Positions 7,803 through 31,932 are shown, numbered from the stretch's first letter. The stretch: 64,000 nucleotides of DNA from Parcubacteria group bacterium (GCA_041664225.1 JBAYLE010000002.1:3541-67540), one strand, 5' to 3'. The notes: generated by a model from the sequence alone, not told the origin. Translations and numbers: made by a program.

Positions 7803-7819
7803 TAAATAAAAAAACACAT

Positions 7820-10805: not shown

Positions 10806-10975
10806 TAATAGGAGTTTATCCCGCATCCAATTCCAACAAAGTTTAGATGTTATGATTAACTTTGCTTGTGAAGTCGCCTGCGGCTAAGTTGTATCTAAAA
10901 ATTTAATTATAACAGCGAATTGGTGCGGGATGCTCATTTTTATTTCCACTCGCACAGCTCGCGGATAAAAATGGC

Positions 10976-12343: not shown

Positions 12344-12353
12344 AAATGGCTGA

Positions 12354-12381
12354 AGAGAGCGGTTTTATCCGCTCTTTTTTC
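12354..12381 (+). terminator. Rho-independent terminator after ugd
   Basis: AGAGCGG-TTTTAT-CCGCTCT hairpin followed by TTTTTTC. Confidence 0.75.
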
Positions 12382-12416
12382 TTTTCATCCAGACAAAATT
12401 TTGCTATAATCAATCT

Positions 12417-13589: not shown

Positions 13590-14508
13590 GTATTTGAAAT
13601 TTTTTCTGAAACTGGCCGTCAGCCTCGGCTTTGTTGCTTGGATAATTCTCAAGACCGACTGGGCCCAAGTTTTGCAATATCTGAGTGAAATTGATCTCTG
13701 GAAGCTGGTAGTGTATGTTCTGCTTATTGTTTTTGGAATTGCTATTTCGGCTCATAAATGGAGACTGCTGGCTAATTTCAAAAATATCTCCAGACATAGT
13801 TTTCGGGATTTTTACCAATTTTATCTTACGGGCACTTTTATTAATAATTTTATGCCCTCATTCATCGGCGGTGACACATTTCGTGCTTATCAAATCGGCC
13901 ACGCTGAAAAAAAATATATAGAGTCTGCTTCATCAGTCGTCGCTGACCGTATCACTGGCTTTGTCGCCATGACAATTTTGGCTTTGCTTTTCGGCCTTCT
14001 AAACCTTCAGCAAACACTCGACAATAAATTGCTTTTGCTTATTTATTCGATTCTGCTGCTTTCTTTTCTTTTGGATATCCTAATCGCCAAAACCAGAGAC
14101 TGGCGGTTGTGGAAAAAATTTCTAGCGCTTCTTCCACAAAAAATTGCGCGCTTCATAACAGAACTGCAGGACTATAGCCGGGACTCCGGAATTCTCACCA
14201 AAACTATTTTTTGGGGCATGATTTTTCAATTTGTCGGCGTGGCACTGGCTAATCTAGTGCTTTTTTGGGCGCTGGATATTCAAATTAGTCTTTTAAATTA
14301 TTTTTCCGTTATCTTTTTAATCAGTCTCATTTCTTCCATCCCGATCAGTATTAATAATATCGGCCTTAAGGAGTGGGCTTATGTCACTTTTTTTGGGATT
14401 TATGGGCTTGAAAGCTCAGCTTTGGTGACAATCGCCATCTTGAGCCGATTTATTCAGATGGTTATCAGTTTTTTGGCACTACCAGCCTATCTGAAAACAA
14501 AAAAATGA
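13582..14508 (+). CDS. Flippase-like membrane protein (lysylphosphatidylglycerol-synthase TM region / UPF0104 family)
   Basis: It has 8 TM helices. The first-helix motif ...WRLLANFKNI and the overall pattern match the LPG_synthase_TM family, which often partners with GT2/GT-C enzymes. It overlaps its neighbours on both sides. Confidence 0.65.
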   Translation: MHKYLKFFLKLAVSLGFVAWIILKTDWAQVLQYLSEIDLWKLVVYVLLIVFGIAISAHKWRLLANFKNISRHSFRDFYQFYLTGTFINNFMPSFIGGDTFRAYQIGHAEKKYIESASSVVADRITGFVAMTILALLFGLLNLQQTLDNKLLLLIYSILLLSFLLDILIAKTRDWRLWKKFLALLPQKIARFITELQDYSRDSGILTKTIFWGMIFQFVGVALANLVLFWALDIQISLLNYFSVIFLISLISSIPISINNIGLKEWAYVTFFGIYGLESSALVTIAILSRFIQMVISFLALPAYLKTKK

Positions 14509-16142
14509 ATTTATTTGGAATAATCCGTGAAAAAAAGAAAGTTTTTGTTCTGCTCCTGGCAATCATCGCGCTGGGAATTTTTTTGCGGACCTATCACTAC
14601 AGCGACTTGCTACGTTTCGGCAAAGATCAGGCGCGTGACGCATCCATCGTTCACAACATTATTGAAAAAAAAGAGCCCTTGCCGCTTCTGGGGCCAAAAG
14701 CTGGCGGCACTGATTTTCAAATGGGTCCCGTTTTTTATTATTTCCAGTACGCGTCCGCTTCAATTTTTGGCGCCACACCGGACAAAATGGCTTATCCAGA
14801 TTTGTTATTTTCCATCCTGACAATACCTCTATTGTTTCTGTTTTTGCGGAAATATCTAAACACTAATATCTCGCTTGCACTCACGGCCTTGTTTGCCGTC
14901 TCTTTTTTCGCCGTACAAAACGGACGCTTTGCCTGGAACCCAAATTCCTTGCCGTTTTTTTCCCTGCTTTTCTTGTATGCTTTTTTGCAGCTAGCTGAAA
15001 CCGCGAAAAACAAAAAATTATGGTGGTCTCTTATTTTGGGTTTTGCTCTGGGTATCGGCGCGCAACTGCATACGCTCTTTATTTTGATCGCCTCAGTTAT
15101 TTTTATTCTTTTTTGCGCCTACCTGATCCGCAAAAAAAATTTGAAAATAAAATGGGCTGTTTTAGTGATCGCCGTTGCGCTTTTGTTCAATATTCCTCAA
15201 ATTATTTCTGAAATCCAAACAAAAGGCTCCAATACAAAAGCTTTTTTCCAGGGCATCACTCAAAAAACAACCTTCAAGCATCCTTTTCCAAAAAACATCA
15301 TGTATGACGGCGCCTGGCATCTCCAGGCTAACACCTTATTTGTCGCTCCGATAGGCGACGATACTAGTCTGCATATTACAAGTCTAGCGGATTCTTTTAA
15401 GGACAACGAGAAGGGAATTGCGGGAATAACAAAATATTTGCCGGATTTACTGCGAATTGTTTTTGGTATCGCTTTAACTTTGGGCGGATATTTTTTACTT
15501 GGATTCTATCTAAAAAAAGAAAAGGATGTCTCAAAAAAAATGTTTTTGCAATTATTATCCTTGTATATCGCAGCTGCTTTTTTTGTTATGATCCCGCTTT
15601 CTTTTGTGCTTGAGCTCCGCTATTTTTTAATCGTTCAGTTTGTTCCGTTTTTGCTGCTGGGGCTACTGATAAAATTTTTCCGCGAAAAATACGGTCAAAC
15701 GGGGCTGCGTCTTTCATTAATAGTGATCTTGTTATTATGCGGATTGAATATTTATAAAGTCGCCAGCGAATTCAATTCTTTTTTAAACAGAGACGGCGAC
15801 GTCGGCATTGCCATCTGGAGCGAAGAAAAATTTGCTGGAGAATTTATCCTGGCGCATACGCAACCCGAGCAAGATGTGCACATGGTTTTTGAACCAGCCG
15901 AAGCGGATAAGTTCATCCGACCACTAGCCTATTTTGATGAAAATATTGACGCGCCTCTGGAACACAATGACGATACACCATTAGAAGACAGCAATGTCGC
16001 TTATTTTTCCCTTATTTTGGATGGACGGAAGGGGAAGGATACATTTAAACGCAACCTAAAAAAATCAGATTTATATATTATTTCGGATTCTGCCACCTAT
16101 GGACGATTGGCTATATACAAACTTGAATTGAAAGAAAAGTAA
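14505..16142 (+). CDS. GT-C glycosyltransferase of the ArnT/PMT (PMT_2) family
   Basis: The N-terminus RTYHYSDLLRFGKDQARDASIV sits in the first periplasmic loop after TM1. This is the position of the DE(x)RY-type catalytic motif in ArnT/PMT enzymes. It has about 11 TM helices plus a C-terminal soluble domain. Confidence 0.7.
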   Translation: MNLFGIIREKKKVFVLLLAIIALGIFLRTYHYSDLLRFGKDQARDASIVHNIIEKKEPLPLLGPKAGGTDFQMGPVFYYFQYASASIFGATPDKMAYPDLLFSILTIPLLFLFLRKYLNTNISLALTALFAVSFFAVQNGRFAWNPNSLPFFSLLFLYAFLQLAETAKNKKLWWSLILGFALGIGAQLHTLFILIASVIFILFCAYLIRKKNLKIKWAVLVIAVALLFNIPQIISEIQTKGSNTKAFFQGITQKTTFKHPFPKNIMYDGAWHLQANTLFVAPIGDDTSLHITSLADSFKDNEKGIAGITKYLPDLLRIVFGIALTLGGYFLLGFYLKKEKDVSKKMFLQLLSLYIAAAFFVMIPLSFVLELRYFLIVQFVPFLLLGLLIKFFREKYGQTGLRLSLIVILLLCGLNIYKVASEFNSFLNRDGDVGIAIWSEEKFAGEFILAHTQPEQDVHMVFEPAEADKFIRPLAYFDENIDAPLEHNDDTPLEDSNVAYFSLILDGRKGKDTFKRNLKKSDLYIISDSATYGRLAIYKLELKEK

Positions 16143-16150
16143 AAAATACT

Positions 16151-17560
16151 TTAGTAATTGATATTTTGGCTGTTACTGACAGAAAAGATTGGCGGTTTTT
16201 TTACGCCTTCAATTTCCATTTGGTCAAAATTGACATCCTGGGAATATTTGACCGAAATTCCTTTCTCGGCTGTGGCTGTGAGATTGGAAATATTTACGTT
16301 TGATATTAAGCTCGATTCTAGCCCCTCCAACTCTACAGCATACTTTGTTTTCCCGACCGAAATGCCGTCAAAATAAAAATTCTTAAATACCGGAGCTTTC
16401 CCGCCCTCTGAGTTCAGGGTAGAGGCTGGATAAGTTAGATCAAGCTTTAGGGCGGTATTTGTCACATCGCCCATCGTGATATTTTTTGCCCAAACATTTT
16501 CCACAAAACCTCCCCGATTTTTGACTGATTTGGCGCGTATGCCCTGATCAACGCCGTTGAGCCTTAAATTTTCCAAAAGAACATTACGTACCCCGCCCGA
16601 CATCTCACTGCCGATTGCGATAGCGCTGTGTCCGCCTTCAATAGCACAATTACGAATAACGATATTTTCCGATGGTCGATTAACTCGCCAGCCATCTTCA
16701 TTTAGGCCAGATTTGATGGAAATGGTATCATCACTGGACAATAGGCGGGAATTTTCAACCAAAATATTCTTGGAAGAATCAATCACTACGCCGTCGGAAT
16801 TGAAACCCAGCGTATCCACATCAAGATTACGCAAGACCACGTTTTCCGAATATATCAGATGGATCGTCCAGCGCGGGCTATTAGTTATGGAATATCCTTC
16901 CAGCCGGACATTTTTGCAGTTTACAAATTGGACAAATGATGGACGCAAAGCGTCTTCGGAAGTTCCAAAAATCCTTTTTTCAACCGGCAGATTATCTTTT
17001 ACCATTTTGTTCAACTTTTCCAACGCCGGTTTTTCTCCTTTTTTCCAAGTCTGCCAAAGTTGCCCCTGACCATTTAATTTGCCCCGTCCGGTAATAGCGA
17101 CATTTTCTGCGCCATTCGCGTAGATAAATGGGGAGTAATTGTACAATTCGATGCCTTCAATCCGCGTAAAGACTGCCGGCAAATAATCTTTGGGATTAGC
17201 GCTGAAAATTATCTCTGCGTCCTTGTCTAAATCCAAATCGATATTGCTCGCGAGATGGATTGCGCCAGTCAGCCATTTGCCGGCGGGAATAACAACCTTA
17301 CCGCCGCCCTTTTGAACGCAATCCTGGATGGATTTTTTGATTGCTTCAGTATTGGAAGTTATGCCATCGGAAATAGCTCCGTAGTCAGAGATATTGCAAA
17401 CATTAGGAGGAAAATCGAAATTTTGCATCTCACTCAAAACAAAAGGGATTGCTTTGCCAGCCAGCTGATTTTTTTTAGATTTGTGTAAAAGAAAAATGGC
17501 CGCCGAAATAAAGATCAGCAACAACAAAACTGCAACTAAATACTTGGCTATTTTCCCCAT
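16151..17560 (-). CDS. Membrane-anchored glycoside hydrolase family 28 (polygalacturonase-like, right-handed beta-helix)
   Basis: It has an N-terminal signal anchor. The GH28 signature blocks are present: GFNSDG (NTD-like), SSDDTISIKSG (DD), GGHSAIAIGSE (GHG) and GIRAKSV (RIK). Confidence 0.8.
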   Translation of the reverse strand: MGKIAKYLVAVLLLLIFISAAIFLLHKSKKNQLAGKAIPFVLSEMQNFDFPPNVCNISDYGAISDGITSNTEAIKKSIQDCVQKGGGKVVIPAGKWLTGAIHLASNIDLDLDKDAEIIFSANPKDYLPAVFTRIEGIELYNYSPFIYANGAENVAITGRGKLNGQGQLWQTWKKGEKPALEKLNKMVKDNLPVEKRIFGTSEDALRPSFVQFVNCKNVRLEGYSITNSPRWTIHLIYSENVVLRNLDVDTLGFNSDGVVIDSSKNILVENSRLLSSDDTISIKSGLNEDGWRVNRPSENIVIRNCAIEGGHSAIAIGSEMSGGVRNVLLENLRLNGVDQGIRAKSVKNRGGFVENVWAKNITMGDVTNTALKLDLTYPASTLNSEGGKAPVFKNFYFDGISVGKTKYAVELEGLESSLISNVNISNLTATAEKGISVKYSQDVNFDQMEIEGVKKPPIFSVSNSQNINY

Positions 17561-17613
17561 ATTTTAACTTATTATAGCTTTTTTTAGAGGATCAGAGAAG
17601 CGCCTATCTTTTA

Positions 17614-17642
17614 TTGCAAAAAGAGCTAAATTCGAGTATAAT
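17614..17642 (+). promoter_or_regulatory. Near-consensus sigma70-type promoter for the GT-C paralog operon
   Basis: TTGCAA (17614-17619), a 17-nt spacer, then TATAAT (17637-17642). The first ATG is at 17683. Confidence 0.55.
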
Positions 17643-17682
17643 AAAAGGCATTGGAATCCAAAAAATCACACTAATTATCGCC

Positions 17683-19791
17683 ATGATTTTACTAAAAAAT
17701 TGCCGCTTTCTTAATAATTTTTACCAAAAAATTGCCAAACGCAAAAATCTGTTGGTTGAATCTCTGCTTTGTTTTGCGCTTTTGATTTACTTTATTTTTG
17801 GATTTCACCATCTATCCAATTTTATTTCGGCCGATGAGCATTTTTGGCTGCCAAATTCTGGGACCGAGCGCATTGAGGATTATTGGACCGCCATCAAAAA
17901 AGGTGATTGGAAAGACACTCGCATCAACGACAAGCCCGGCATCACTCTGGCGTACACCTCGGGCATAGCCATGCTATTTGATGATGCTAAAGGCCAAATC
18001 ATAGACAGCGACGGAAACTTCAAGCGATATGATCCGGCTCGGACAAAAACGATAAATTTTTTGTATCGGTTACCAATTCTTCTCATCAGCGGCTTCTTCT
18101 CTTTTTTCTTTTTTTGGATCATCCGACGCATAACCGGGAACGAGTGGATCGCCTTATTTTCCGCCACCGGCATCCTGCTTTCACCTATTCTTTTAGGAAT
18201 TTCCCAGATCGTCAATCCTGATTCTCTCTTTTGGATTTTCGGATCAGCCTCGTTTTTTTCTTTTTATGCATTTTTGCAGACGCAAGAAAAAAAGTTTATT
18301 CTTCTTGCTTCTGTTTTTTTTGGTTTGGCAATGGCCAGTAAATATGTCAGCATAATTTTTATTCCCTTCTTTCTTTTCGCTATCTTCGCCTATTATTTTT
18401 TCGAATTTGAAAAATGGCAAAGCACTCCGCAAGAACTTAAAAAAATCGCCATCCGCATTGGCTTGGCGTATTTCGCTATCATTTTATCGGGCTTTTTGAT
18501 TTTTGCCCTTATGATGCCAGCTTCCTTCGTAGAACCGAAGATTTTTTATCTCGGAACGATTGGCTTCCCCGGCATGGAAATGATTTTTTGGCTGGCCATG
18601 GCTATAAACGCCCTTGTTCTTCTGGATGCGTGGATATTCAAAAGCCGCGGCCTTCATTTTTCGCTCAAAAAATTACAACCGCTGCAAAAAATCGCGCCGA
18701 AACTACTTTATTTAATCCTGCTTGGAACGTTCTTTTTTGTGCTGGTCAATTGGCTAACGCGCAACAGCTTTATTGATTTGTCCGACATATCTTTTGATAT
18801 GAAGCGCAAAGACGCATTCAGCGAGCTCGCATTTTACAAGCGCTATTTCATGGAATTTGTGCCTTTGGTTTTTTCCCTGACCCCGATCGCTCTTTGCACG
18901 CTTTTGTTTGGATGGATAAAAGCATTCTTTGCCAAAGGAAAAACCAACACTTTCGTTTTTACATTATCCGTGTTTTTTCTGATTTTTTATGCGGCTGTCA
19001 TCGAACAAGGACTCTTGGTCACAGTGCGTTATAGCATCATTCTTTTTCCACTAGCGCTGGTGCTTGGAGCAACCGCGCTAAATGATTTTTTTTCCGCCAA
19101 ATCACAAGAAGAAAATAAGAAAGCCTTTGTGGTTTTTATTTTTGCCTTTATCGGCATTACTGTTCTCTTCGCTTCGTCTACGATCCAGCAGAGTTATTTC
19201 ACCGGTGCCCTGAAAACTGTTTACCTTGACCGCGTTTATCAAAATTGGTATTTCATCCCGCTTTTCCTTTTGCTTGTGGGAGGATTGGCAAGGGCGGCTT
19301 ACGCTTATCTGCCATGGCAAAAAATTTTCCAAATTCCCAAAATTGGGATTTTTATCATATTGATCGCCCTAAATTCACTGAGTATTTTTCTGATATCTCC
19401 ATTTTATTTCAGCTACACTAATGACCTTTTACCAAAAAATTATATTATCAGCGGCGCTTGGGGCTATGGGGGATATGAAGCCGCCGAATATCTGAATGAT
19501 CTGCCGAATGCCCGGAATCTGACAATCTGGACCGATGTTTACGGAGTGTGTGAATTTTTTTCCGGTAAATGCATCCACAAATCCAAGATAAACACCAGCA
19601 AATACACGATTGATTATTATTTTCGGTCTTTGCAGGCGACTATTCCGCTGAATTTTCCGCATCCGATGGAAAAACATTCTATCTGGTCAATCTATATCGA
19701 TGACAGACCAGAAAGTTTTGTGAAATTATACAAAGCTAAACCGTTAAATTCATCGTCAACCGACGATAATAGTGATGGCACTTCTCAATGA
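17683..19791 (+). CDS. GT-C/PMT_2-family membrane glycosyltransferase, paralog 1 of a tandem array
   Basis: The ORF-track start at 17614 is a TTG inside the promoter, and the ATG at 17683 is the likely start. Blocks shared with the next two genes are SADEHFW, RINDKPGITLAY, LSPILLGISQI.NPDSLFW, SKYVSIIFIPFF, WGYGGYEAAEYLN and G.C.FF.GKC. Confidence 0.7.
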   Translation: MILLKNCRFLNNFYQKIAKRKNLLVESLLCFALLIYFIFGFHHLSNFISADEHFWLPNSGTERIEDYWTAIKKGDWKDTRINDKPGITLAYTSGIAMLFDDAKGQIIDSDGNFKRYDPARTKTINFLYRLPILLISGFFSFFFFWIIRRITGNEWIALFSATGILLSPILLGISQIVNPDSLFWIFGSASFFSFYAFLQTQEKKFILLASVFFGLAMASKYVSIIFIPFFLFAIFAYYFFEFEKWQSTPQELKKIAIRIGLAYFAIILSGFLIFALMMPASFVEPKIFYLGTIGFPGMEMIFWLAMAINALVLLDAWIFKSRGLHFSLKKLQPLQKIAPKLLYLILLGTFFFVLVNWLTRNSFIDLSDISFDMKRKDAFSELAFYKRYFMEFVPLVFSLTPIALCTLLFGWIKAFFAKGKTNTFVFTLSVFFLIFYAAVIEQGLLVTVRYSIILFPLALVLGATALNDFFSAKSQEENKKAFVVFIFAFIGITVLFASSTIQQSYFTGALKTVYLDRVYQNWYFIPLFLLLVGGLARAAYAYLPWQKIFQIPKIGIFIILIALNSLSIFLISPFYFSYTNDLLPKNYIISGAWGYGGYEAAEYLNDLPNARNLTIWTDVYGVCEFFSGKCIHKSKINTSKYTIDYYFRSLQATIPLNFPHPMEKHSIWSIYIDDRPESFVKLYKAKPLNSSSTDDNSDGTSQ

Positions 19792-21679
19792 CAATTTAAA
19801 ATCTCCCGAAGATTTTTTCAAGCGGAATAAATTTTGGGCGCTGCTGCTTTTGCCGCTGGCGATATATTTCTATTTTGGATTGCAACACCTCGCCCAATTC
19901 GAAACTGCCGACGAACACTATTGGATCTATAGCAACACCAATAATAATAATTACTGGGACAACAATAACGGGCGGATCGAACAATATTGGAGCGCGCTCG
20001 CTTCCGGCAACTGGAAAAAAACCCGCATCAATGACAAACCCGGCATAACTTTGGCGTATGTTTCCGGTATCGGTTCGTGGCTAAAGACAAATCTGGAGAA
20101 GGGGATTGTTTCTGGGGCCATCGCTCCGATGTCGAAAATCGACAAAGCGGAAAGGATAAATTTTTATTTTCGTTTTCCACTCTTGATTTTTAATGGACTT
20201 TTTTCGCTGGTTCTTTTCTTTTTAGTTAAAAAGCTGACAAAAAATGATTGGATCGCGCTTATAACCGCGACACTGATTTTGCTCTCTCCCATACTTCTGG
20301 GAATTTCGCAAATTATCAACCCGGATTCCTTATTGTGGGTATTCAGCTTCGCCGCAATTTTGACTTATCTTATCCATCTCAAAGAAAATAGCCTGCGATA
20401 TGCCTTATGGGCATCCCTGTTCTTGGGGTTATCTCTTCTCTCTAAATATTCTTCCATAATTTTATTTCCATTTTTCTTCGCCGTCATGCTGGCCTACCTC
20501 ATTGAAAATTTTAAATCTTGGGGCAAACAAACGATTGCTCGAAAAATTCGCCGCTACGCGTTCACATATTTTTTAATTATTGCCGGAGCCTTGTTTATTT
20601 ATGCTGTTTTGCTTCCCGATAATCTGGTAGAATTCCGCCATTTTATGAAGGGCAGTCTTGGCTTTAAGGGTATGCAGACTTTTTTTCTGGCATTGATTGG
20701 ATGTAATCTGCTTATTTTGCTCGACGCCCATTTTTTTCAGAGCAAGACCATGCGATGGGTCGCAAATACAATATCGCCCCTGGAAAAATACTTTAAGCTG
20801 GCTATTTTTACGATTTTGCCCATCCTTTTTATTGTTATTATTTTCAACACGCTTATCGAAAAAGACCAGCTCGGACTTTTCATAACGCCTTTTGACGCAT
20901 CTCTCAAGTCCATTTTTTCCCAGCTGCCTGACTGGAAAATCATTCTCAAGCAATTTTTGCCATTGATATTCTCTCTTTCGCCGATGGTCGTTTTATTTTT
21001 ACTGTATGCCTGGATCAGAAACTGGCGTAAAAGTGACGAATTCCAATGGATCATATTTGTCTTTTCATTTTTCATCCTTGTGCTCGTTGCTGCCTCTATG
21101 CAACAAAAAATAATGCTCATCGTGCGCTATAGTATCATGTTGTATCCTCTAGTTTTCACTATGGCGGCTATCGGGATTTATCAATTTTTTATGTTAGATA
21201 AAAAAAGCAATGCCTTTAAAACGGTTATTTTCACCGGGATAATTTTAATCAGTATCATAAGTCTTTGGCAAATCAAACCATTTTATTTTAACTACACCAG
21301 CAGATTGTTGCCCCAACAATATCTCACAACAGACGCCTGGGGCTACGGCGGATATGAGGCGGCTGAGTATTTGAATAGTTTGCCCGACGCCCAAAATATG
21401 CGTATTTGGTCTGATTACAACGGGGTTTGCCTTTTTTTCAACGGAAAATGCGAAGCAAATAATTTAACCATGAAAAACATCCGTAAAAAATCAGAATCAG
21501 CGCCGCGCTTCGATTATTTCGTTTCCGACCGCCGGGGCAGCATTTTGAGCCATAATTTATGGGAAAGCCTGCCCGAACAATATGGCAGCCAATTGATCCA
21601 AGAATCAAATATTGGCGGGCGGGCGGGAAATTTTATTCGAATTTATAAGAATAATTTAATCCAATCAAATGGAAACTAA
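19775..21679 (+). CDS. GT-C/PMT_2-family membrane glycosyltransferase, paralog 2
   Basis: Its start overlaps the end of paralog 1. The same conserved blocks are present (TADEHYW, RINDKPGITLAYVSGI, WGYGGYEAAEYLNSLPDAQN). Confidence 0.7.
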   Translation: MALLNDNLKSPEDFFKRNKFWALLLLPLAIYFYFGLQHLAQFETADEHYWIYSNTNNNNYWDNNNGRIEQYWSALASGNWKKTRINDKPGITLAYVSGIGSWLKTNLEKGIVSGAIAPMSKIDKAERINFYFRFPLLIFNGLFSLVLFFLVKKLTKNDWIALITATLILLSPILLGISQIINPDSLLWVFSFAAILTYLIHLKENSLRYALWASLFLGLSLLSKYSSIILFPFFFAVMLAYLIENFKSWGKQTIARKIRRYAFTYFLIIAGALFIYAVLLPDNLVEFRHFMKGSLGFKGMQTFFLALIGCNLLILLDAHFFQSKTMRWVANTISPLEKYFKLAIFTILPILFIVIIFNTLIEKDQLGLFITPFDASLKSIFSQLPDWKIILKQFLPLIFSLSPMVVLFLLYAWIRNWRKSDEFQWIIFVFSFFILVLVAASMQQKIMLIVRYSIMLYPLVFTMAAIGIYQFFMLDKKSNAFKTVIFTGIILISIISLWQIKPFYFNYTSRLLPQQYLTTDAWGYGGYEAAEYLNSLPDAQNMRIWSDYNGVCLFFNGKCEANNLTMKNIRKKSESAPRFDYFVSDRRGSILSHNLWESLPEQYGSQLIQESNIGGRAGNFIRIYKNNLIQSNGN

Positions 21680-23585
21680 AACAGAAGAAGCTAAAATGAA
21701 AGAAACCGAGCCGAAAGAAACCGAAAAGAAAAGGGCTGAAATAAAAAAAGACAAATCCTCTTGGTTTTTAGCCTTGCTTATCATCCCGCTAGTGCTTTAT
21801 TTCAATTTCGGTTTGCGGCATCTGACGCAATTTGAAACAGCGGATGAGCATTTGTGGATATCAGATTTATACACTGGACGGATTCAGAGCTATTGGAACG
21901 CCATGGCTTCCGAAAATTGGAAAGGCACCCGCATCAATGATAAACCCGGTATAACCTTAGCGTATGTTGCCGGCATCGGAACCTGGTTTGAAAACAATGT
22001 CCAGGACAAAATCGTCAAAAAAGCCAATTTGACCATAACCTATAATCCTGAGAAAACAACTGAAACCTTCTACATCTACCGCAAGCCCCAGGTCGTTTTC
22101 ACAGGCTTGATGGGAATTTTCTTCTGCTTAGCTTTATGGCGTCTAACTCGAAAAGTCTGGTTGGCCTTGGCCGGGGCCTCTCTGGTTTTGCTTTCTCCGA
22201 TCCTTATCGGCATCTCGCAAATCATTAACCCAGACGCAATGTTGTGGATCTTTTCTTCCGCCAGCCTGCTTTCTTTTTTCGTATTTTTGAAAGAAACAAG
22301 ATTTATTGATGCCTTTTTGGCCGCTTTTTTCCTCGGGTTATCACTTCTTTCAAAATACGTGGCACTCATATTTTTTCCATTTTTTCTAGTCATGCTTTTG
22401 GCCTATTTGCTGTTTTATTACACCGAATTGATCGAGCAGAAAACTTTGCTACGCAAAACAATTGAAATCACCTTGGGTTATATATTTATTATCGCCGGCA
22501 GCATCGGGCTGTTCGCGCTTGGCATGCCGGCAGCCATCGTCAATACCAGTATTATTTACAAATCGATTTTTGAATTCGGCGGCATGCAAAATATCCTTCT
22601 GATCTGTGCTGGAGTAAATCTCGTTCTTTTTTTGGACGCAGCGCTTTTGAAATCTTTTATCGCGAAATTTTTACTCAAATACCTCCAATTTCTAAAAATT
22701 GTCCTGCCAAAAATTTTGTATTTAGCTATGCTTGTTTTAGCCGCGGCCACTATCGCTAATTGGTCATTTATGAATAATTTTCTGCATACCCCAATTCTTG
22801 AGGTCGGCGGAGGTAAGCGGCCGATCATCCTCACTTTTCCTTTCTATCAGCAAATGGTTCTACAGGCTAAACCGTTGTTTTTTTCCATCACACCGATCGC
22901 TTTGTTTCTAATATTTTTTCTCTGGGCAAAATCAATCTTCCGCCGGAGCAGTTTTGATTATATTGTTTTTATCCTTTCACTTTTCTTTCTAGTCTTCTTT
23001 TACACGGTCACTCAGCAAGCCCTTTTGGTAAATGTCCGCTATTCCGTTGTTCTTTATCCTTTTGCGTTAACCTTGGCGGCCATCGGTTTTTATGAGATAA
23101 TTAAGAACCTCAAGCATTATTATTCACTAGCCTTGTTTTTGCTCCTGCTCGGCGCTAGCTATCTCAGTGTTTCCAAAATACAACCGTTCTACTTCAACTA
23201 CTCGAATGATTTACTGCCAAAGAATTCCATAATTACGACTGCCTGGGGCTATGGCGGATACGAGGCGATTAATTATATAAAGTCTCAAGGTGACCCCAAA
23301 AATATGAAGATTTGGGCAAACTATTATGGGGCCTGTCCGTTTTTTGCCGGTAAATGCGCCGTTGAGGGTTCAACCAAGTGGATGAAAGAGAGTGAAATTT
23401 TGAATATTGATTATGTAATTCTCAGCCAAGACGGACTTAGCAAAAACAAAAAAGGACTGCAGGCTATCAATGAGATATTTCCAACTGACAACCCGGTTTG
23501 GGAACTAGTTATCGACGGCCGACCGGACAATTTTGTCAAAGTATATAAAAATCCTTTAAAACAAACTACTTATGAAAACAATTGA
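21669..23585 (+). CDS. GT-C/PMT_2-family membrane glycosyltransferase, paralog 3 (K/E-rich N-terminal tail)
   Basis: It overlaps paralog 2 by 11 nt. Blocks TADEHLW, RINDKPGITLAYVAGIGTW and WGYGGYEAINYI are present. Confidence 0.7.
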   Translation: METKTEEAKMKETEPKETEKKRAEIKKDKSSWFLALLIIPLVLYFNFGLRHLTQFETADEHLWISDLYTGRIQSYWNAMASENWKGTRINDKPGITLAYVAGIGTWFENNVQDKIVKKANLTITYNPEKTTETFYIYRKPQVVFTGLMGIFFCLALWRLTRKVWLALAGASLVLLSPILIGISQIINPDAMLWIFSSASLLSFFVFLKETRFIDAFLAAFFLGLSLLSKYVALIFFPFFLVMLLAYLLFYYTELIEQKTLLRKTIEITLGYIFIIAGSIGLFALGMPAAIVNTSIIYKSIFEFGGMQNILLICAGVNLVLFLDAALLKSFIAKFLLKYLQFLKIVLPKILYLAMLVLAAATIANWSFMNNFLHTPILEVGGGKRPIILTFPFYQQMVLQAKPLFFSITPIALFLIFFLWAKSIFRRSSFDYIVFILSLFFLVFFYTVTQQALLVNVRYSVVLYPFALTLAAIGFYEIIKNLKHYYSLALFLLLLGASYLSVSKIQPFYFNYSNDLLPKNSIITTAWGYGGYEAINYIKSQGDPKNMKIWANYYGACPFFAGKCAVEGSTKWMKESEILNIDYVILSQDGLSKNKKGLQAINEIFPTDNPVWELVIDGRPDNFVKVYKNPLKQTTYENN

Positions 23586-25122
23586 TCTGCAAAAATTTTT
23601 AAATTGGTCCAAATCAAAAAACGTGGTTATCGTGATTCTGCTCATCATTGTTTTCTTGGGCGGCATTTTGCGCCTTTATCACCTGGGCGCCAATCCATTG
23701 GTAGCCGATGAATTTTTGGATATGAACTCGTCTTATGGTTATTTTAAAACTCATATCTGGCAAGCCTGGGATTTCAACATGGATGCTCCAAGTAATATCG
23801 ATGTTTATGCCGCCAGAGACGAACGGGCTTGGCCGTATAAATGGCAGGTGGCTCAGCTTTTTCGATTTTTTCCATCCACGGAAGCCGCCGCCCGCAGCTT
23901 GAGCGTCATCTGGGGGCTAATTTCTGTTTTTGCCGTGTATTGGGCGGCAAAATCTTTTACCAAAAAGAAATCCATCGGCCTCTTGGGCGCTTTTTTATTC
24001 GCGGTGAGCGCTACTGCCATTGCTTTTGACCGAAAACTGCGCATGTATGCGATGTTTTATCCCATGTTTCTCTTGATGTCTCTTTTTCTTTTCCAGTTTT
24101 TAGAAGCCGATTATCACGGCAAAATCAGACTGGTTAAGTTTTTTTATGATAAGTTCAAAATAAACGTTCTTTTCCTAGTCCCATTCTTGGTCACAGCGCT
24201 TATTGGCATTTCCATCCAGCTTTTAAGCGTAAATATTCTGCCGGTTTTTCTAGTATATATTTTGATTCAAGCCATAATTTCAGCGCGCCGGAAAGATTAC
24301 GTCAACAAATATTCAATAATCCTGGGTCTTTCAATTATCGCGGCAATCGCCGCTTTCATCACTGTTCCCCAGATAATTGTTTATTATTCCGGCGTTCTTA
24401 AATTTTTCATAAACAACCATGGCTATCTCACGGACATATTAAGAGACTACAGCAATTATCCGCTGGCGATTATTCTTTTGATCTCGGGAATTTATTTTTT
24501 GAGACAGCAAAAGTTATCCAGAGAATCATGGTGGCTTTCTCTTTCATTTTTTGTGCCGCTTTTAATGGCCGCCTTTATGTGGCAAAGGACGCAGGGCATC
24601 CAATATGTTTTTTTCTTGCAATCTTTTCTGATAATTTTAATCGCAACCGGTATTTATTTTTGGGCCCTATATTTGCGAAATCGCTTGGTTAAATTTCCTC
24701 AAAAAGCCTTCTATACAGTGATTATTTTGGCTTTGCTAATCCTGCCTGATTATGGTTATTTTTTCCGCAACGACACCACTTATCAGCGGGGCAATAACCA
24801 GATTGCTGATTATCGCAAAGTTTTTAAATACGTGAAGAAAAATCTGAAACCGGGCGATGTTCTTCTAACTAGAAATTTTAGAAATTATTATTTCAGCGGG
24901 GCAAAAGTCAAAGTTTTTGATTTTGGGGGAGAGAGAGCCACGCATGATTTATCCGTTGCTGACATCCAGCAAATACAAAATCAAAATCCGCACGGCTGGG
25001 TAGTGCTTTTTGACAATGACGAAGATTTTATAAATAAAGAAGCAATAAATTATATCAAACAAAACTTCACCCAGGTTGATAATTCCCAAGTCAGGGGAGC
25101 AAGCGACGCTTATACTTGGTAA
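23572..25122 (+). CDS. GT-C/PMT-like membrane glycosyltransferase (shorter, divergent fourth member)
   Basis: It overlaps paralog 3 by 14 nt. LYHLGANPLVADEFLDMNSSYGYF is a DE motif after TM1. It has more than 10 TM helices. Confidence 0.6.
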   Translation: MKTIDLQKFLNWSKSKNVVIVILLIIVFLGGILRLYHLGANPLVADEFLDMNSSYGYFKTHIWQAWDFNMDAPSNIDVYAARDERAWPYKWQVAQLFRFFPSTEAAARSLSVIWGLISVFAVYWAAKSFTKKKSIGLLGAFLFAVSATAIAFDRKLRMYAMFYPMFLLMSLFLFQFLEADYHGKIRLVKFFYDKFKINVLFLVPFLVTALIGISIQLLSVNILPVFLVYILIQAIISARRKDYVNKYSIILGLSIIAAIAAFITVPQIIVYYSGVLKFFINNHGYLTDILRDYSNYPLAIILLISGIYFLRQQKLSRESWWLSLSFFVPLLMAAFMWQRTQGIQYVFFLQSFLIILIATGIYFWALYLRNRLVKFPQKAFYTVIILALLILPDYGYFFRNDTTYQRGNNQIADYRKVFKYVKKNLKPGDVLLTRNFRNYYFSGAKVKVFDFGGERATHDLSVADIQQIQNQNPHGWVVLFDNDEDFINKEAINYIKQNFTQVDNSQVRGASDAYTW

Positions 25123-25140
25123 AAACAATATTATTTTAAA

Positions 25141-25166
25141 AAGGCCTGGTTACACCAGGTCTTTCT
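25141..25166. terminator. Bidirectional terminator between convergent genes
   Basis: CCTGGT-TAC-ACCAGG hairpin flanked by an A-run and a T-rich run. It overlaps the stop codon of the flippase gene. Confidence 0.6.
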
Positions 25167-26628
25167 TTTCTTTCATTCTAACAATGCTGCGGATGATATC
25201 AAGGTCGCTTTCCTTAATTTCTTTTAAAAGATAAAGAACGCAGAAATAAACCAGGATCAGAAGAGTACTCCAAGCGAAAAAGATTAGATTTTGTGAAGTT
25301 AGGTACAAAGACAAAATATAGATAAAAGATCCGGCTAGGGCCATTTTGAGAAGACTTATAGCGTTTAAAATGCCCTCAAAATAGCGATGGCTGTACGCAA
25401 CTGCAATCAACATCACAACTAAGGAAGTGATGGATGTAGCAATAGCTGAGCCCACGATGCCATATTTTTTAATTAAGATATAATTCAGAATTGCGTTCAA
25501 GAACATGCCCCCGCAAGCAATCCACATCGGAACTCTGTTTTTGCCAGCGCCATTGAGCGCAAAGCTCAAGATATAAAAAACGGTGAGGCATCCAATACCA
25601 AACGTCAAGATTTGCAAGGGGAGTGTAGCCTCCAGATATTTTGCGCCATAAATAAACTTGATCACGGAAGCCGAATAAGTGTTTAACAAAATTACAATCG
25701 GCACCAAAAACATAATCATGATGCGCAGTGACTGCGTTATGATGTTGCGAGTCTTCTCCTGATTATTTTGCGCGGTTGATTCAGAAACTGAAGGCAAGAG
25801 TATTATGGTCAAAGCATAGAAAAGGAAGTAGGGTATTTGTCCAATTAAAAAAGCACTATTATAAATTCCAGCCAAGTAGTCGCTGTGAGTAATGGCTTTC
25901 ACAAAATACATATCCAATGAAATTAAGACCTGGTAAAAAATCATGAAAAGTGTGACCGGCCAGGCGTATTTCAACATCTTGCGCCAATCGAAATGCAGTT
26001 TTTTCTGGATTTTGGGAAATTTTTTGGAAATCCAAAAGATATCCGCTGCCCAAGCCGTCAGAAAAACAAGAGTAGGTGCGAAAATATAAACCGAGATTGA
26101 CCCGTTTAATCCAAACATCCTTACTAAACTGACTATCAAAACTACACGAAAAAGAGAACGCAAAATTTTCAGCCCGGATTGTAAATTGAATTGGTGGATG
26201 CCGGACAGATAATAAAAGAAATATGAATCCAGCGCCCAAGCCGGTAAAATAAGCGTTGAAAGGCGAAAAAGGGGAGTCAGTGTCGGATCGCCTAGCATTT
26301 GTGAAATCAGGGGGGTAACTAAATAAAAAATCAAAGAGATTGCGCCAATAACAATCAGCTGCAAAATCAAGCCGGTTCTCTTGATGACGGGCACCATCTC
26401 CGGACGGGTAATATGTATTTCGCTTAAATATTTACCCATAGAAATAGGAATCCCGCTCCCTATGAGTGTGATGACCATAATGGTAAAAGACACGATCAGG
26501 CCATAACGCCCATAATCAGAGGGAGTCAAAAGCCTCCCGGCCACCGAATGAACGACGTAGCCAGAAAGATTGAATAAAACTTCAGCGATGACCAACCAAA
26601 CGAATGATTTAGCTAAATTTTTGGACAT
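25150..26628 (-). CDS. MOP-superfamily (Wzx-like) oligosaccharide/polysaccharide flippase
   Basis: It is 492 aa with 12-14 TM helices. The N-terminal LAKSFVWLVIAEVLFNLSGYVVHSVAGRLLTPSDYGRYG matches the Polysacc_synt family start. Confidence 0.8.
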   Translation of the reverse strand: MSKNLAKSFVWLVIAEVLFNLSGYVVHSVAGRLLTPSDYGRYGLIVSFTIMVITLIGSGIPISMGKYLSEIHITRPEMVPVIKRTGLILQLIVIGAISLIFYLVTPLISQMLGDPTLTPLFRLSTLILPAWALDSYFFYYLSGIHQFNLQSGLKILRSLFRVVLIVSLVRMFGLNGSISVYIFAPTLVFLTAWAADIFWISKKFPKIQKKLHFDWRKMLKYAWPVTLFMIFYQVLISLDMYFVKAITHSDYLAGIYNSAFLIGQIPYFLFYALTIILLPSVSESTAQNNQEKTRNIITQSLRIMIMFLVPIVILLNTYSASVIKFIYGAKYLEATLPLQILTFGIGCLTVFYILSFALNGAGKNRVPMWIACGGMFLNAILNYILIKKYGIVGSAIATSITSLVVMLIAVAYSHRYFEGILNAISLLKMALAGSFIYILSLYLTSQNLIFFAWSTLLILVYFCVLYLLKEIKESDLDIIRSIVRMKEKKDLV

Positions 26629-26704
26629 ATTTGGCTTATTTAAGCTATTATATTAAATCACAGAAGAAATTACCTTGACAAATTTTTTATTTCGATTATA
26701 TTGA

Positions 26705-27040
26705 TTTCAGGCCTTTGGTCTTGGATCGAGCGAGGTTTCCCACCTACGATGGATCCGCTCGACGTAATTTCGTTCTTTCAGTAAATAGGGATTCGTATCT
26801 CGGTTCACTCGCAGATGTTTGTTGAGTTTAGCGGCACCGTTGCGGTTTAATAACCAAGATACGATTATATAAGCCAGGGAGAATGGTAAAAGTTTTGATT
26901 CAGATTAGGCCTTTGAGCAATCTCGGTTCAAGTCGTTGCACAGGACAGGCAGTAACGTCCGGATACTCGACGAGCAACCGGTAGCCCAACATTTTGGATC
27001 ACAAAGGTCAAAACTTAAAGCCATCTCTCCCGGGCTTTTT
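26705..27040. ncRNA. Candidate structured non-coding RNA or foreign remnant: a GC-rich island of about 340 nt (50% GC or more) in a 420-nt gap lacking ORFs of 60 aa or more
   Basis: GGCCTTTG (26710-26717) pairs with CAAAGGTC (27002-27009), closing the element. Internal hairpins include TCGAGCG...CGCTCGA (26725-26760) and GGAC-N10-GTCC (26944-26961). A plus-strand TTGACA-16-TATATT (26675-26702) lies upstream and a weak AAGCC...GGCTT+T7 at 27017-27047 lies downstream. No RNase P, tmRNA or SRP hallmark sequences were recognised. Confidence 0.3.
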
Positions 27041-27047
27041 TTATTTT

Positions 27048-27419
27048 CTAATGAACGGGAATAATTTTATAAATTTCTTTTTTATCTGTTCCGCTAGCCA
27101 CATCAATCATGATTTTTCCACTAGCATTAACTTCTTGGTTGTTTAAATTTATATCAGTCACGTCGCCTTTTTGAATCGTGAGATCTCCTTCCTTGAGTTT
27201 TGTTTTACCGGCAGTGAAAACTGTCCAATGAAAAGAATCGCTATTGCTGTGATTTTCAATCGAAAAAGACAAGTCTGAATTTTTCGGATTCTCAAAAGAC
27301 AGCGCCCACCAATTTTTGTCCAAGTCTAAATCGGCTTGTTTTTTTTCTGTCCAGGATAGATAAACCGCGCTGACCAAGATCAGCAGTATTGTGACAATAA
27401 TTATTTTTCGATTGTTCAT
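27048..27419 (-). CDS. Small secreted hypothetical protein (123 aa)
   Basis: It has a signal anchor (IIIVTILLILVSAVYLSW) and lies 6 nt downstream of the large membrane protein gene on the same strand. Confidence 0.5.
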   Translation of the reverse strand: MNNRKIIIVTILLILVSAVYLSWTEKKQADLDLDKNWWALSFENPKNSDLSFSIENHSNSDSFHWTVFTAGKTKLKEGDLTIQKGDVTDINLNNQEVNASGKIMIDVASGTDKKEIYKIIPVH

Positions 27420-27425
27420 ATTTTT

Positions 27426-29408
27426 TTATTCAGATTGCGAACGATAAAAATTCCTTATCTCGCCATTATTATACACTTGCCAGAAATTATTATCTTTTTC
27501 AAATTGAGGCGCATCAGTTTTGTTAATCATCGCAAAGTTTATCCCGAGATCTTGGTAGCATTTCTGGCTGTCCGGACTGGACGGCGTAGAAATCATCCAG
27601 AGTGTGCAGGATTCTTTTTTATCTATGCCGTTGGCATAGCGGTCAAAATTAGCTCGGTAAAATGGAAAATTATAATCGCGCATAAAAAACAATTTAACCC
27701 ACGCATCCGCAGTCATAAAAACGTGGTCCTTGACGATCTGATCGCTTCCATCTGTTTTTTGCGCCAAATATCGCGAAGCGGCGAATGTCTGTACGGTTTT
27801 TTGCGCGTCAGCATTTTTAATTTGATTTTGTTTATTATCATAAAAACCCTGGGCCACCGCATAAGAAAAAATAAGCACCATCACGACCAAAAGCATTTTG
27901 GAGCTCAAAAACAATTGACTCGCGCCTTCTGGAGATTTAGCTTTGCTCTTCGCTATTCCGATGATTTCGATAATCGCCAAAGAAGCCAGGATGGAAAATG
28001 GGAAGCTGCCATAATTGCCGATCCGCGATGAGGGAACGTCGATTTTTATCCATTGCGGATAAAGGGAAATCAGCAAGATAACAAGAATCCAGGAAATCAT
28101 GAATATGGCTTGATAGCCAGAATCATTTTCGTCTTTACGCTTATATAAAAGGAGTAGGGCCAGTCCGGCGCCGACTAGCCCCAAAACTTCCCGCGGTTCG
28201 CCGATCGTAAATTTAAATTGGGAAAATATGAGCCCCTCATGGCCAGCCTTGGATGGCCCTCCAATTACGGTGTTCACCGCCGTATTTTTCAGATATGACG
28301 GCGTATAAACTCCCAAAACAAAAACCAGCGCGAAAATTAAAAATATGATGACCGGCCAGGAAAAAAATAACTTTGCCCATTGCCCAAGCATAGAGCGAGC
28401 TTGGCGAAAATTGAAAATTAAAAGCAACACGACAGAGAGCGCCAAAATGAAAATTAAAATAAATCCAGTCAAATGATGAGTATAAAAAAGACCCATGGTT
28501 GAAAAAAATGCCGCCATCGCGTGCGCCCGATTTTTCTCGGTCAGCGCCCGATAGAAGAAATAGAAAGAAACCGGAAGCAGGAGATTGCCCAAGATGTTAC
28601 CAATAACACCGCCAGCTACATATTTGGCTTCTGGTGGGGAAATGGCAAATAATGGACCAATGAAGAAAAGCGCCAGAATCGCGATATTTTTGGCCTGCGA
28701 GTGGTTCTTAAAAAAGCGCAAAGCTAAAATAAAAATTGCTAAAATACTAGCTAGATTAATTAAGAAAAGAGTTACAACAGGAAAGTATGAAATAAAATCC
28801 AACCCGCTCAAGATGGCAACGGCAGAAAAAATCAGATGTTCACCAATAATAAAATCGCTAATATTTTGCAATGGTCCGATCTGATACACTCCGTTTATCT
28901 GCTGAATATCCCGCTGAGCGTATTCCGGGATATGCCCCGAAACAGCAATCTCTTTGGCCCAATACATATGATGCCCAAGATCAGTGGCTTGCGGCAAAAT
29001 ATTATCCGCAAGATAGGCAACTTTTATAAAAATGGTTAAGAAAAGAATCGCGATTATCAGCGCTGTTTGTTTTTTGGAAAAATTAAACAACTTGTTGGTT
29101 TCCGCTTCGGCCTCAAAATCGCTTTGTCTTTTGACTAATTTATAAATCGCGAAGCAAATTACTGCGAACACCAAAATTGCAGCCAAAAGGGAAGCGCGCG
29201 TTATTGATATATCCAAGCGATTTAGGATCATCATCAGAAAATCAACGGAGATAATACTGAAAACAACCGCTATCACCAGTTTTTCAATGCCGGAAAATAT
29301 CTTTTTTTTGCCAAAAATTGCCAATAGCAAAAAATAGCCAGGCAGAAATAATACCAAGACCAACGAAACATAAAAAAGTATTTGATTTCCTAAAAAATTA
29401 AGCATCAA
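27426..29408 (-). CDS. Large polytopic membrane protein (660 aa), putative GT-C-like glycosyltransferase/polymerase
   Basis: It has about 13 TM helices and a C-terminal soluble domain. It overlaps the start of the downstream GT4 gene. Confidence 0.55.
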   Translation of the reverse strand: MMLNFLGNQILFYVSLVLVLFLPGYFLLLAIFGKKKIFSGIEKLVIAVVFSIISVDFLMMILNRLDISITRASLLAAILVFAVICFAIYKLVKRQSDFEAEAETNKLFNFSKKQTALIIAILFLTIFIKVAYLADNILPQATDLGHHMYWAKEIAVSGHIPEYAQRDIQQINGVYQIGPLQNISDFIIGEHLIFSAVAILSGLDFISYFPVVTLFLINLASILAIFILALRFFKNHSQAKNIAILALFFIGPLFAISPPEAKYVAGGVIGNILGNLLLPVSFYFFYRALTEKNRAHAMAAFFSTMGLFYTHHLTGFILIFILALSVVLLLIFNFRQARSMLGQWAKLFFSWPVIIFLIFALVFVLGVYTPSYLKNTAVNTVIGGPSKAGHEGLIFSQFKFTIGEPREVLGLVGAGLALLLLYKRKDENDSGYQAIFMISWILVILLISLYPQWIKIDVPSSRIGNYGSFPFSILASLAIIEIIGIAKSKAKSPEGASQLFLSSKMLLVVMVLIFSYAVAQGFYDNKQNQIKNADAQKTVQTFAASRYLAQKTDGSDQIVKDHVFMTADAWVKLFFMRDYNFPFYRANFDRYANGIDKKESCTLWMISTPSSPDSQKCYQDLGINFAMINKTDAPQFEKDNNFWQVYNNGEIRNFYRSQSE

Positions 29409-30513: not shown

Positions 30514-30594
30514 AGGCCAAGTATACCTTAAATCGAACTATTTTTCAATACAAAAAGCCCCAGAATAAACCAGCGCTTTTTATCAAAAACATGC

Positions 30595-31575: not shown

Positions 31576-31581
31576 GTTTTA

Positions 31582-31812
31582 TCATTTCTTTTTAATAATT
31601 AGGCCTGGGTCAGTACAATTAAAATCACACGTAGCATTTTTCGTACCCTGTTCAACAAGATTCTTAGCGCATTCATTCAACCTTTCCTGACATTTAGCCT
31701 TGCTTTCATCGAAATAATTACGATTAATTTCATAGCCAAAATAGTTCAACACAAAAAGCGCAACAACCACGAAACCAACAATCCAAATTATACCCTTGAT
31801 AATACTGAACAT
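31582..31812 (-). CDS. Small membrane-anchored Cys-rich protein (76 aa)
   Basis: It has an N-terminal TM helix and C-terminal C-x7-C...C-x3-C. It lies 6 nt upstream of GT2 on the same strand. Confidence 0.4.
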   Translation of the reverse strand: MFSIIKGIIWIVGFVVVALFVLNYFGYEINRNYFDESKAKCQERLNECAKNLVEQGTKNATCDFNCTDPGLIIKKK

Positions 31813-31857
31813 TTTTTATTTTGTTAATTTTTATCTTTTGTTTAAGCCTTTCTTAAA

Positions 31858-31892
31858 AAAACTAAGGGGTATAATACCATAAAAGCATTATA
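31858..31892 (-). terminator. Terminator-like hairpin downstream of the nucleotide-sugar dehydrogenase gene
   Basis: Minus strand: AAGGGTATAAT-gcttttatggt-ATTATACCCCTT followed by AGTTTTTTT. Confidence 0.5.
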
Positions 31893-31932
31893 CCCTTATT
31901 CAAATTTTCCGACAAGTTTCATTTTTCCCAAA

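Follow-up and report, generated by a model that had tools for sequence, protein, structure and literature searches.

A conserved array of GT-C-fold membrane glycosyltransferase genes in an envelope-glycan cluster of a Parcubacteria group bacterium

Genes and signals of the P1-P4 array

The subject of this study is an array of four genes, P1 to P4, which encode membrane glycosyltransferases of the GT-C type and lie in a 64,000-nucleotide stretch of DNA from an uncultured, Moranbacteria-like Parcubacteria group bacterium (GCA_041664225.1 JBAYLE010000002.1:3541-67540), hereafter termed the window. A six-frame list of open reading frames (ORFs) places the four genes in the same direction on the plus strand (Table 1), where P1 and P2 overlap by 20 nucleotides (17 nucleotides when counted from the ATG of P2), P2 and P3 by 11 nucleotides, and P3 and P4 by 14 nucleotides. 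These values agree with a preliminary description of this DNA, which had reported one tight co-directional unit of four GT-C genes with starts overlapping the previous stops by 11-20 nucleotides. Two start codons are available for P1 and P2, respectively, and gene callers picked the ATG codons at 17683 and 19775 on an identical, independently assembled contig. P1, P2 and P3 are true paralogs, as had likewise been proposed, with a mutual identity of 38-39% in the alignment, and P4 is approximately 22% identical to them.

Table 1. Features of the GT-C array and of the surrounding glycan genes (positions in the window)
Feature	Position	Strand	Remarks
Sigma-70-like promoter candidate	17614-17642	+	TTGCAA-17-TATAAT; 10/12 consensus match, 40 nucleotides before the P1 ATG
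P1	17614 (TTG) or 17683 (ATG) to 19791	+	Long form; 702 amino acids from the ATG (703 codons including the stop)
P2	19772 (GTG) or 19775 (ATG) to 21679	+	Short form; 635 amino acids from the GTG, 634 from the ATG
P3	21669-23585	+	Second short form; 638 amino acids
P4	23572-25122	+	Different GT-C subfamily; 516 amino acids
Hairpin	25140-25164		Between convergent P4 and Wzx; 11-bp stem with 5 G-C pairs, T-rich tails on both strands
GT2a	9870-10805	+	ArnC/GtrB/PgfS-like polyprenyl-phosphate sugar synthase; Pfam Glycos_transf_2
UDP-glucose 6-dehydrogenase (UGDH)	10976-12343	+	TuaD-like
GT4a	12417-13589	+	Cytoplasmic GT-B glycosyltransferase; conserved neighbour
LPGS	13582-14508	+	LPG_synthase_TM/TIGR00374 flippase-like membrane protein
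GTC5	14505-16142	+	Fifth GT-C, third subfamily; 545 amino acids, PMT_2 type (1.4e-12)
GH28	16151-17560	-	Alpha-D-galacturonidase-like hydrolase with N-terminal membrane anchor
Wzx	25150-26628	-	Wzx/MurJ-type polysaccharide flippase
s123 and DUF6541	27048-29408	-	Conserved pair; 123-amino-acid protein and 660-amino-acid multi-pass membrane protein
GT4b, GT2b and UDP-ManNAc-dehydrogenase-like enzyme	29398-33387	-	
Second glycan module	38856-45339	+	GT4, Wzy_C/O-antigen-ligase-like, GT4, LCP (LytR-CpsA-Psr) ligase, GT2

The promoter candidate in front of P1 sits in the short divergent gap behind the minus-strand GH28 gene and is the sole TTGCAA-17-TATAAT site in the window, where 0.14 would be expected. 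Elements of the form TTGnnn-17-TAnnnT are also found upstream of the P1 orthologs at loci L001, L005, L006, L007, L011, L036, L042 and L070 of the genome scan described below, and they are kept in these relatives even where the upstream gene is co-directional. A promoter match of at least 10 out of 12 positions precedes 7 of 29 P1-clade genes as compared with 9 of 105 other family members, and is strong only in the closest relatives. In line with the preliminary description, a promoter-like element is thus present in front of the array, with counterparts before the closest P1 orthologs, and its sequence is consistent with a promoter. At the opposite end, the hairpin between P4 and the Wzx gene likely represents a bidirectional terminator, judging from its stem and flanking tails. 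Moreover, we did not find a Shine-Dalgarno-like sequence within 20 nucleotides upstream of any array gene start, or of the starts at 13582 and 14505. The absence of Shine-Dalgarno sequences together with the overlapping genes would fit translational coupling of the array; initiation at the array genes and at 13582 and 14505 must rely on something else, for instance coupling or A-rich leaders.

Protein family, predicted fold and the C-terminal domain

P1, P2 and P3 score above the Pfam gathering cut-offs of both PMT_2 (PF13231; cut-off 26.1) and PMT (PF02366; cut-off 22.7), with 38.6 and 32.4 bits for P1, 43.8 and 33.7 bits for P2, and 27.9 and 35.3 bits for P3, respectively. P4 scores 25.8 with PMT_2 and thereby remains just below the cut-off, and 8 of 24 P4 relatives match this family at E<=0.01. 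P2 is 100% identical to the NCBI protein 'glycosyltransferase family 39 protein [Parcubacteria group bacterium]', and P4 likewise already bears the name 'glycosyltransferase family 39 protein' at NCBI. AlphaFold2 models were obtained for P2 (mean pLDDT 92.8, built on 78 family sequences) and P4 (pLDDT 89.6). A Foldseek comparison of the P2 model with the PDB yielded GT-C enzymes only at E<=1e-3 (STT3/AglB/PglB, DPY19, ArnT); among all fold matches, AglB, STT3B and Pmt4 ranked highest, the lead of STT3/AglB/PglB being not discriminating, and the paralog pairs Pmt1-Pmt2 and EmbA-EmbB (the latter with structures 7bvf and 7bvh) were found as well. The models thus predict the multi-pass membrane domain with GT-C fold that defines this superfamily; the identity of the subfamily to the Pmt and ArnT structures amounts to 10-13%.

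An alignment of 78 family members, including P1-P3, contains 37 invariant columns. In P2 numbering these include D47/E48 directly after the first transmembrane (TM) helix TM1, K89-P90-G91, N183-P184-D185, K225-Y226, R452-Y453, W523-G524-x-G526 and the Cys pair C553/C560. The acidic loop-1 residues characteristic of the GT-C superfamily are therefore present as D47/E48 (ADEH) in P1-P3 and as D46/E47 in P4, the latter two without variation in 50 P4-family sequences. As the Asp-Glu pair sits straight after TM1 in the models, it probably faces outward. Since P1, P2 and P3 all keep the 37 invariant columns, none of them resembles a degenerate copy, and all three look catalytically intact by this alignment. 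Among the shared motifs listed in the preliminary description, ADEH[FYL]W, RINDKPGITLAY, WGYGGYEA and G.C.FF.GKC are indeed found in P1-P3. LSPILLGISQI.NPD holds for P1 and P2 but not for P3, which has LSPILIGISQIINPD instead, and the SKY block is conserved only approximately, as SKY..(I/L)I..PFF. In addition, P2 carries an Asn-rich loop-1 insertion, SNTNNNNYWDNNNG, at positions 19925-19975 (P2 residues ~52-67), just past the Asp-Glu motif, which occurs neither in P1 and P3 nor in the family consensus and is modelled with a pLDDT of about 80-84.

Taken together, P1-P3 constitute a small subfamily that combines a GT39/PMT_2-like membrane core with a C-terminal domain of its own, approximately 130 residues in length. 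No Pfam model matched this domain (P2 residues 480-635) at E<=10. We found it in 358 of 1.84 billion cluster representatives, nearly always at the end of proteins of ~600-770 amino acids; among the shorter matches, many likewise end in the domain and resemble fragments, and in a few proteins of 916-1138 amino acids it is internal. Judging from these matches, the C-terminal domain is specific to the P1-P3 subfamily. P1 contains in addition, ahead of this domain, an insertion of ~67 residues with two extra hydrophobic segments, as indicated by alignment and hydropathy; long forms from other genomes typically have such an insertion too.

The preliminary description had placed the divergence of the paralogs in a periplasmic C-terminal domain and had taken it as a sign of diversified acceptor specificity. 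Determining the mean pairwise identity among P1-P3 by region (P2 residue numbers), we obtained the highest values for loop 1 (residues 61-100; 67%), for residues 161-200 (63%) and for the start of the C-terminal domain (residues 501-560; 62-63%). The lowest values were obtained for the TM/loop regions 101-140 (23-28%) and 341-400 (20-23%) and for the C-terminal tail (residues 561-620; 17-24%). Thus, the first of these notions applies to one part of the domain only: its final ~75 residues diverge, with 17-31% pairwise identity, whereas its opening ~60 residues (PFYFNY...WGYGGYEA...GxCxFFxGKC) are among the best-conserved stretches of the proteins, with 56-65%. The second is likewise borne out only in part, since the two TM/loop regions are as divergent as the C-terminal tail, and only 13 columns, scattered and conservative, are fixed within each paralog clade but differ between the clades.

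Age, distribution and stability of the array

A scan of GTDB species genomes yielded 78 loci, and a family hidden Markov model was applied to the ORFs of 79 non-redundant loci. Many of the scan loci are titled Candidatus Moraniibacteriota, Moranbacteria or Parcubacteria/Patescibacteria group, and others stem from untyped 'bacterium' metagenome-assembled genomes (MAGs), ~20 'uncultured Bdellovibrionales', one Micavibrio and one Elulimicrobium. The P1-P3 subfamily is found almost only in Moraniibacteriota/Parcubacteria MAGs. Two or more family members are present in 50 of the 79 loci, and the remaining 29 contain a single member, many of them on contigs that end early. The long/short/short trio recurs in five related MAGs (L001, L004-L007), accompanied in L001 and L006 by the 516-amino-acid P4 type, and P3 orthologs occupy the third position in L001, L004, L005 and L006. 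In related loci the long form stands first in the array, and in 20 of 28 cases a short form comes next within 900 nucleotides of a long one. In a neighbor-joining tree, the P1 clade comprises 30 sequences, 29 of which stem from other loci, and P3 clusters with 6. Since P1 and P3 have orthologs of their own in other species, the duplications predate these species, and, as read from the tree, they predate the divergence of many Moraniibacteriota species.

With respect to the taxonomic titles, the ~20 'uncultured Bdellovibrionales bacterium' MAGs and the one 'Micavibrio sp.' that carry the family (L038-L041, L044, L046, L048-L052 and others) include several loci that also hold GT2a, UGDH, GT4a and LPGS, with a GT2a that is 70-75% identical to that of the window. 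Misassigned titles would be one explanation, a wider distribution of the cluster another.

The preliminary description had pointed to the risk that the array arose only in assembly or reflects a recent, assembly-collapsed duplicate; a duplicate expanded in assembly belongs to the same explanation. Beyond the generic risk of metagenome assembly nothing speaks for it, and it is exceedingly improbable: the Logan assembly of SRR6484324 matches window positions 9844-28584 (18.7 kb) with 0 mismatches, the same gene order is present in five other MAGs, and the longest DNA-level repeat shared by the paralogs comprises 111 nucleotides at 65-77%. The same independent assembly also argues against the proposal, which follows on from the same description, of a recently duplicated, rapidly evolving or phase-variable toolkit for variable surface glycosylation within a population, which we consider very improbable. 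In its favour, species differ in how many GT-C genes they have and in how these are ordered and oriented, with up to six GT-C-like ORFs per locus; a varying GT-C complement between species is usual for surface-glycan loci. Moreover, in a comparison of the window with L001, the nearest relative with DNA, the nonsynonymous substitution rates (dN) of P1 and P3 (0.35 and 0.29) are 2-3 times those of P2, Wzx and DUF6541 (0.14, 0.08 and 0.10, respectively), with P4 at 0.18. However, LPGS and GT4b, which belong to this cluster too, show rates like those of P1 and P3 (0.27 and 0.34, respectively), and the ratio to the synonymous rate (dN/dS) is about 0.1 where computable. A comparison of dN/dS by domain, which the preliminary description had suggested, came down to dN and this rough ratio because synonymous sites are saturated (pS 0.6-0.95). 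In addition, the simple-sequence repeats or invertible DNA that mark phase-variable surface-glycan loci are missing from the array: we found no simple-sequence repeats, only three trivial tandem-repeat rows, no recombination-grade repeats and no invertible segments, and the inverted repeats present are short and imperfect (pairs of 18-30 nucleotides, 71-89% complementary), corresponding to chance level. Finally, identity between the paralogs is ~39%, and each has its own set of orthologs in many genomes. Taken together, these results describe an old array that evolves under purifying selection and is not phase-variable. Though real and tidily arranged, it belongs to an ordinary kind of system, neither switchable nor fast-evolving.

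Surrounding glycan genes and the proposed function

The array is embedded in a cluster of genes for envelope glycans (Table 1), and the gene order GT2a-UGDH-GT4a-LPGS-[GT-C genes]-Wzx-s123-DUF6541-GT4b-GT2b is kept in related genomes. GT2a matches the NCBIfam models of ArnC (5.4e-49) and PgfS (5e-46) over its full length, in both cases below the equivalog cut-offs, possesses two C-terminal hydrophobic/TM helices, and is present within ~10 kb of the arrays in 19 of the 79 loci, many of which lie on incomplete contigs. These features make GT2a a candidate for the enzyme that makes the lipid-linked donor; GT2b is an AglJ/PpgS-like second polyprenyl-phosphate sugar synthase. LPGS, located immediately before the array in L001, L002, L007, L011, L042 and L059, is a candidate flippase for the lipid-linked sugar by its family, and GtrA was not found among the window genes scanned. 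Relatives of GTC5 occur in 28 of the 79 loci. GH28, which matches a BT4155-type model with 7.5e-115, though below the cut-off, adjoins the arrays in 18 of them. The pair of s123 and a DUF6541/DUF1616 protein adjoins GT-C arrays in 15 of the 79 loci. The second glycan module of the window suggests that the organism makes a wall-attached polymer of the Wzx/Wzy type.

These data lead us to regard it as probable, though well short of certain, that P1-P4 form an ancient, conserved four-gene operon, with the promoter candidate (17614) and the hairpin (25140) as its ends, for membrane glycosyltransferases of the GT-C fold that require polyprenyl-phosphate sugars. The likeliest role of these four enzymes is to act outside the membrane and to add carrier-borne sugars at different positions of a surface polymer or protein. 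In such a pathway, the cytoplasmic enzymes of the cluster would make nucleotide sugars, including UDP-glucuronic acid by means of the UDP-glucose dehydrogenase. By analogy with ArnC/ArnT and the streptococcal systems, GT2a would link a monosaccharide to polyprenyl phosphate at the inner side of the membrane, and LPGS would carry the lipid-linked sugar to the outer leaflet. There, each GT-C enzyme would employ its loop-1 Asp-Glu pair to pass the sugar on to its own site on an acceptor outside the cytoplasm. With genes that overlap stop to start and lack Shine-Dalgarno sequences, the enzymes would be made in a coupled fashion and in roughly equimolar amounts. Because the neighbouring genes are of the polysaccharide type, the acceptor is most likely a wall or surface glycopolymer made by the surrounding Wzx, Wzy-like, LCP and GT4 proteins; the PMT-like family and the fold matches to AglB/STT3 leave surface proteins as the alternative.

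Similar divisions of labour are known from other bacteria. In GtrB/PgtC2 and PgfS/PgfM1, a GT-A synthase makes a sugar-P-undecaprenol that is used by GT-C enzymes outside the membrane (PMC12041528), and the pgf operon of S. mutans (PgfS-PgfM1-PgfE-PgfM2) holds two GT-C genes (PMC5856776, PMC12041528). With these three-component systems (ArnC-ArnT, GtrB/PgtC2 of S. pyogenes and Pgf) the cluster described here shares a GT2 enzyme of the ArnC/PgfS type with C-terminal TM helices, a flippase candidate and several GT-C enzymes encoded together. It differs from them by its PMT_2-type enzymes, as PgfM1, PgfM2 and PgtC2 are YfhO-type GT-Cs (PMC12041528), by its four to five GT-C genes instead of one or two, and by a flippase candidate of the LPG_synthase_TM/TIGR00374 type instead of GtrA. 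Furthermore, the cluster does not imply a lipid A pathway for this Parcubacteria-group organism. RgtE together with RgtA/B/C/D of Rhizobium represents a further three-component system for lipid-linked monosaccharides, and a uronic-acid donor as in the Rgt system is conceivable here, by analogy, in view of the dehydrogenase and GH28.

The array also resembles in its organisation, besides the pgf operon, mycobacterial embCAB, an operon of three tandem paralogous GT-C arabinosyltransferases. Both contain three tandem, co-directional and anciently diverged GT-C paralogs that were kept together; the Emb enzymes use lipid-phosphate monosaccharide donors outside the membrane, and the paralogs pair as EmbA-EmbB. 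The domains of the Emb-type arabinosyltransferase family (GT53) were not detected in the array proteins, nor was the curated model of ArnT (GT83) matched. With the PMT_2/PMT families, which comprise the GT39 enzymes that mannosylate proteins at Ser/Thr from dolichyl- or polyprenyl-phosphate-mannose and their ArnT-like bacterial relatives, P1-P3 share the above-threshold Pfam scores, the Asp-Glu pair after TM1, a (D/E)KP(G/P) motif in loop 1 and the GT-C fold. They depart from these families in that the Pfam models cover only ~110-170 core residues and in the extra C-terminal domain.

Several observations weigh against this interpretation or limit what can be assigned. Donor and acceptor are not readable from the sequence. 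None of P1-P4 has an NCBIfam equivalog, and searches of all PDB sequences with the family profile and with a single protein gave no relevant solved relative, which leaves any sugar or linkage assignment conjectural. In addition, the flippase candidate does not belong to the GtrA type. As regards transcription, 37 promoter-like sites in the region compare with 34.6 in shuffled sequences, that is, there is no enrichment; the match in front of P1 is one of many chance-level consensus matches, and the consensus match alone is therefore weak evidence in this AT-rich region. Moreover, no specificity-determining domain or region separating P1-P3 stood out in the comparison of clade columns, and it is only from their long co-retention that we infer the paralogs to be non-redundant.

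Two further explanations concern the product and the assembly of the enzymes. P1-P4 could be protein O-glycosyltransferases like PMT/GT39 or PgfM1, modifying Ser/Thr-rich surface or membrane proteins instead of a glycopolymer, which we regard as possible but somewhat unlikely. PMT_2 and PMT are the best Pfam families and the best fold matches, AglB, STT3B and Pmt4, are protein-modifying enzymes, yet no MIR domain, a feature of eukaryotic GT39, was matched in the Pfam scan of P1-P4, and the neighbourhood consists mostly of polysaccharide genes (Wzx, Wzy_C, LCP, GT4s, GH28) with no conserved candidate substrate protein adjoining the arrays. The invariant WGYGG(Y)E, ~20 residues past the last TM helix, lies at a position that corresponds to WWDYG of oligosaccharyltransferases and may serve as a lead only; the motif is not WWDYG, and a match to Pfam STT3 was not obtained. 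Alternatively, the paralogs could be subunits of one obligate hetero-oligomeric GT-C enzyme, in which the long P1 combines with the short P2/P3 at a stoichiometry set by translational coupling. The long-then-short unit that recurs across the phylum, the overlapping genes lacking Shine-Dalgarno sequences and the pairing of solved GT-C paralogs (Pmt1-Pmt2 and EmbA-EmbB among the fold matches) would suit such an enzyme, which we nevertheless consider unlikely, because 29 of the 79 loci contain a single member, albeit many on contigs that end early, and each paralog keeps the full set of catalytic-type residues.

A more specific version of the heteromeric reading is conceivable: the translationally coupled long and short paralogs would form a heteromeric GT-C machine on the outer face of the membrane that builds or extends a surface polymer containing uronic acid directly from polyprenyl-phosphate monosaccharides, with the C-terminal domain carrying WGYGGYE and the Cys pair binding the acceptor. 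We regard this version as a long shot; if true, it would represent an independent counterpart of mycobacterial arabinan synthesis in a reduced-genome bacterium of the candidate phyla radiation.

Regarding the operon of separately acting GT-C enzymes that we favour, we found no paper on this array in the literature searched on glycosyltransferases of Moranbacteria, Parcubacteria, Patescibacteria or the candidate phyla radiation. The array is a well-conserved, lineage-restricted GT-C operon, the proteins of which are already annotated publicly as GT39 family. Moranbacteria and other Parcubacteria are small-genome bacteria with a presumed lifestyle of attachment to other cells, and experimental knowledge of their cell surfaces is almost nil. 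Within a single envelope-glycan cluster of ~35-45 kb, this small-genome organism retains no fewer than five GT-C enzymes; the core of the cluster is conserved across the lineage, while the GT-C complement varies by species. This provides targets for surface-glycan work, namely the operon itself, the partners that likely make its donor, and the C-terminal domain specific to the subfamily. The array thus offers an entry point to the surface glycans of Moranbacteria, and it does not reveal a new kind of mechanism.

Some minor observations concern other genes at these loci. In one set of relatives, namely L010 (9231-9947), L013 (9143-9916), L032 (8612-9340), L043 and L056, a gene for a protein of ~240 amino acids is located between the long and the short GT-C gene. 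It is YdjC-like in the two loci scanned against Pfam (L010, 1.9e-25; L032, 3.9e-23), and no such gene was found among the window genes scanned. It recalls the deacetylase step of the NaxD/ArnD type, which modifies lipid-linked amino sugars ahead of GT-C transfer. At the edge of the glycan region, the plus-strand genes at 2128-4344 and 4406-6055 encode multi-pass membrane proteins of 738 and 549 amino acids with big C-terminal soluble parts. Neither matched a Pfam family at E<=0.001, and the 549-amino-acid protein shows a faint match to the AftD GT-C domain (E 0.014); both are candidates for additional GT-C-like enzymes. When GTC5, DUF6541 and these two proteins were compared as single-sequence profiles with that of the family, the resulting probabilities (0.5-13%) were uninformative. 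Finally, the plus-strand gene at 7787-9652 encodes a 621-amino-acid protein with an N-terminal hydrophobic segment and weak matches to the carbohydrate-binding modules F5/8 type C and DUF642 (E about 0.007-0.009), which could be a secreted glycan-binding or substrate protein.

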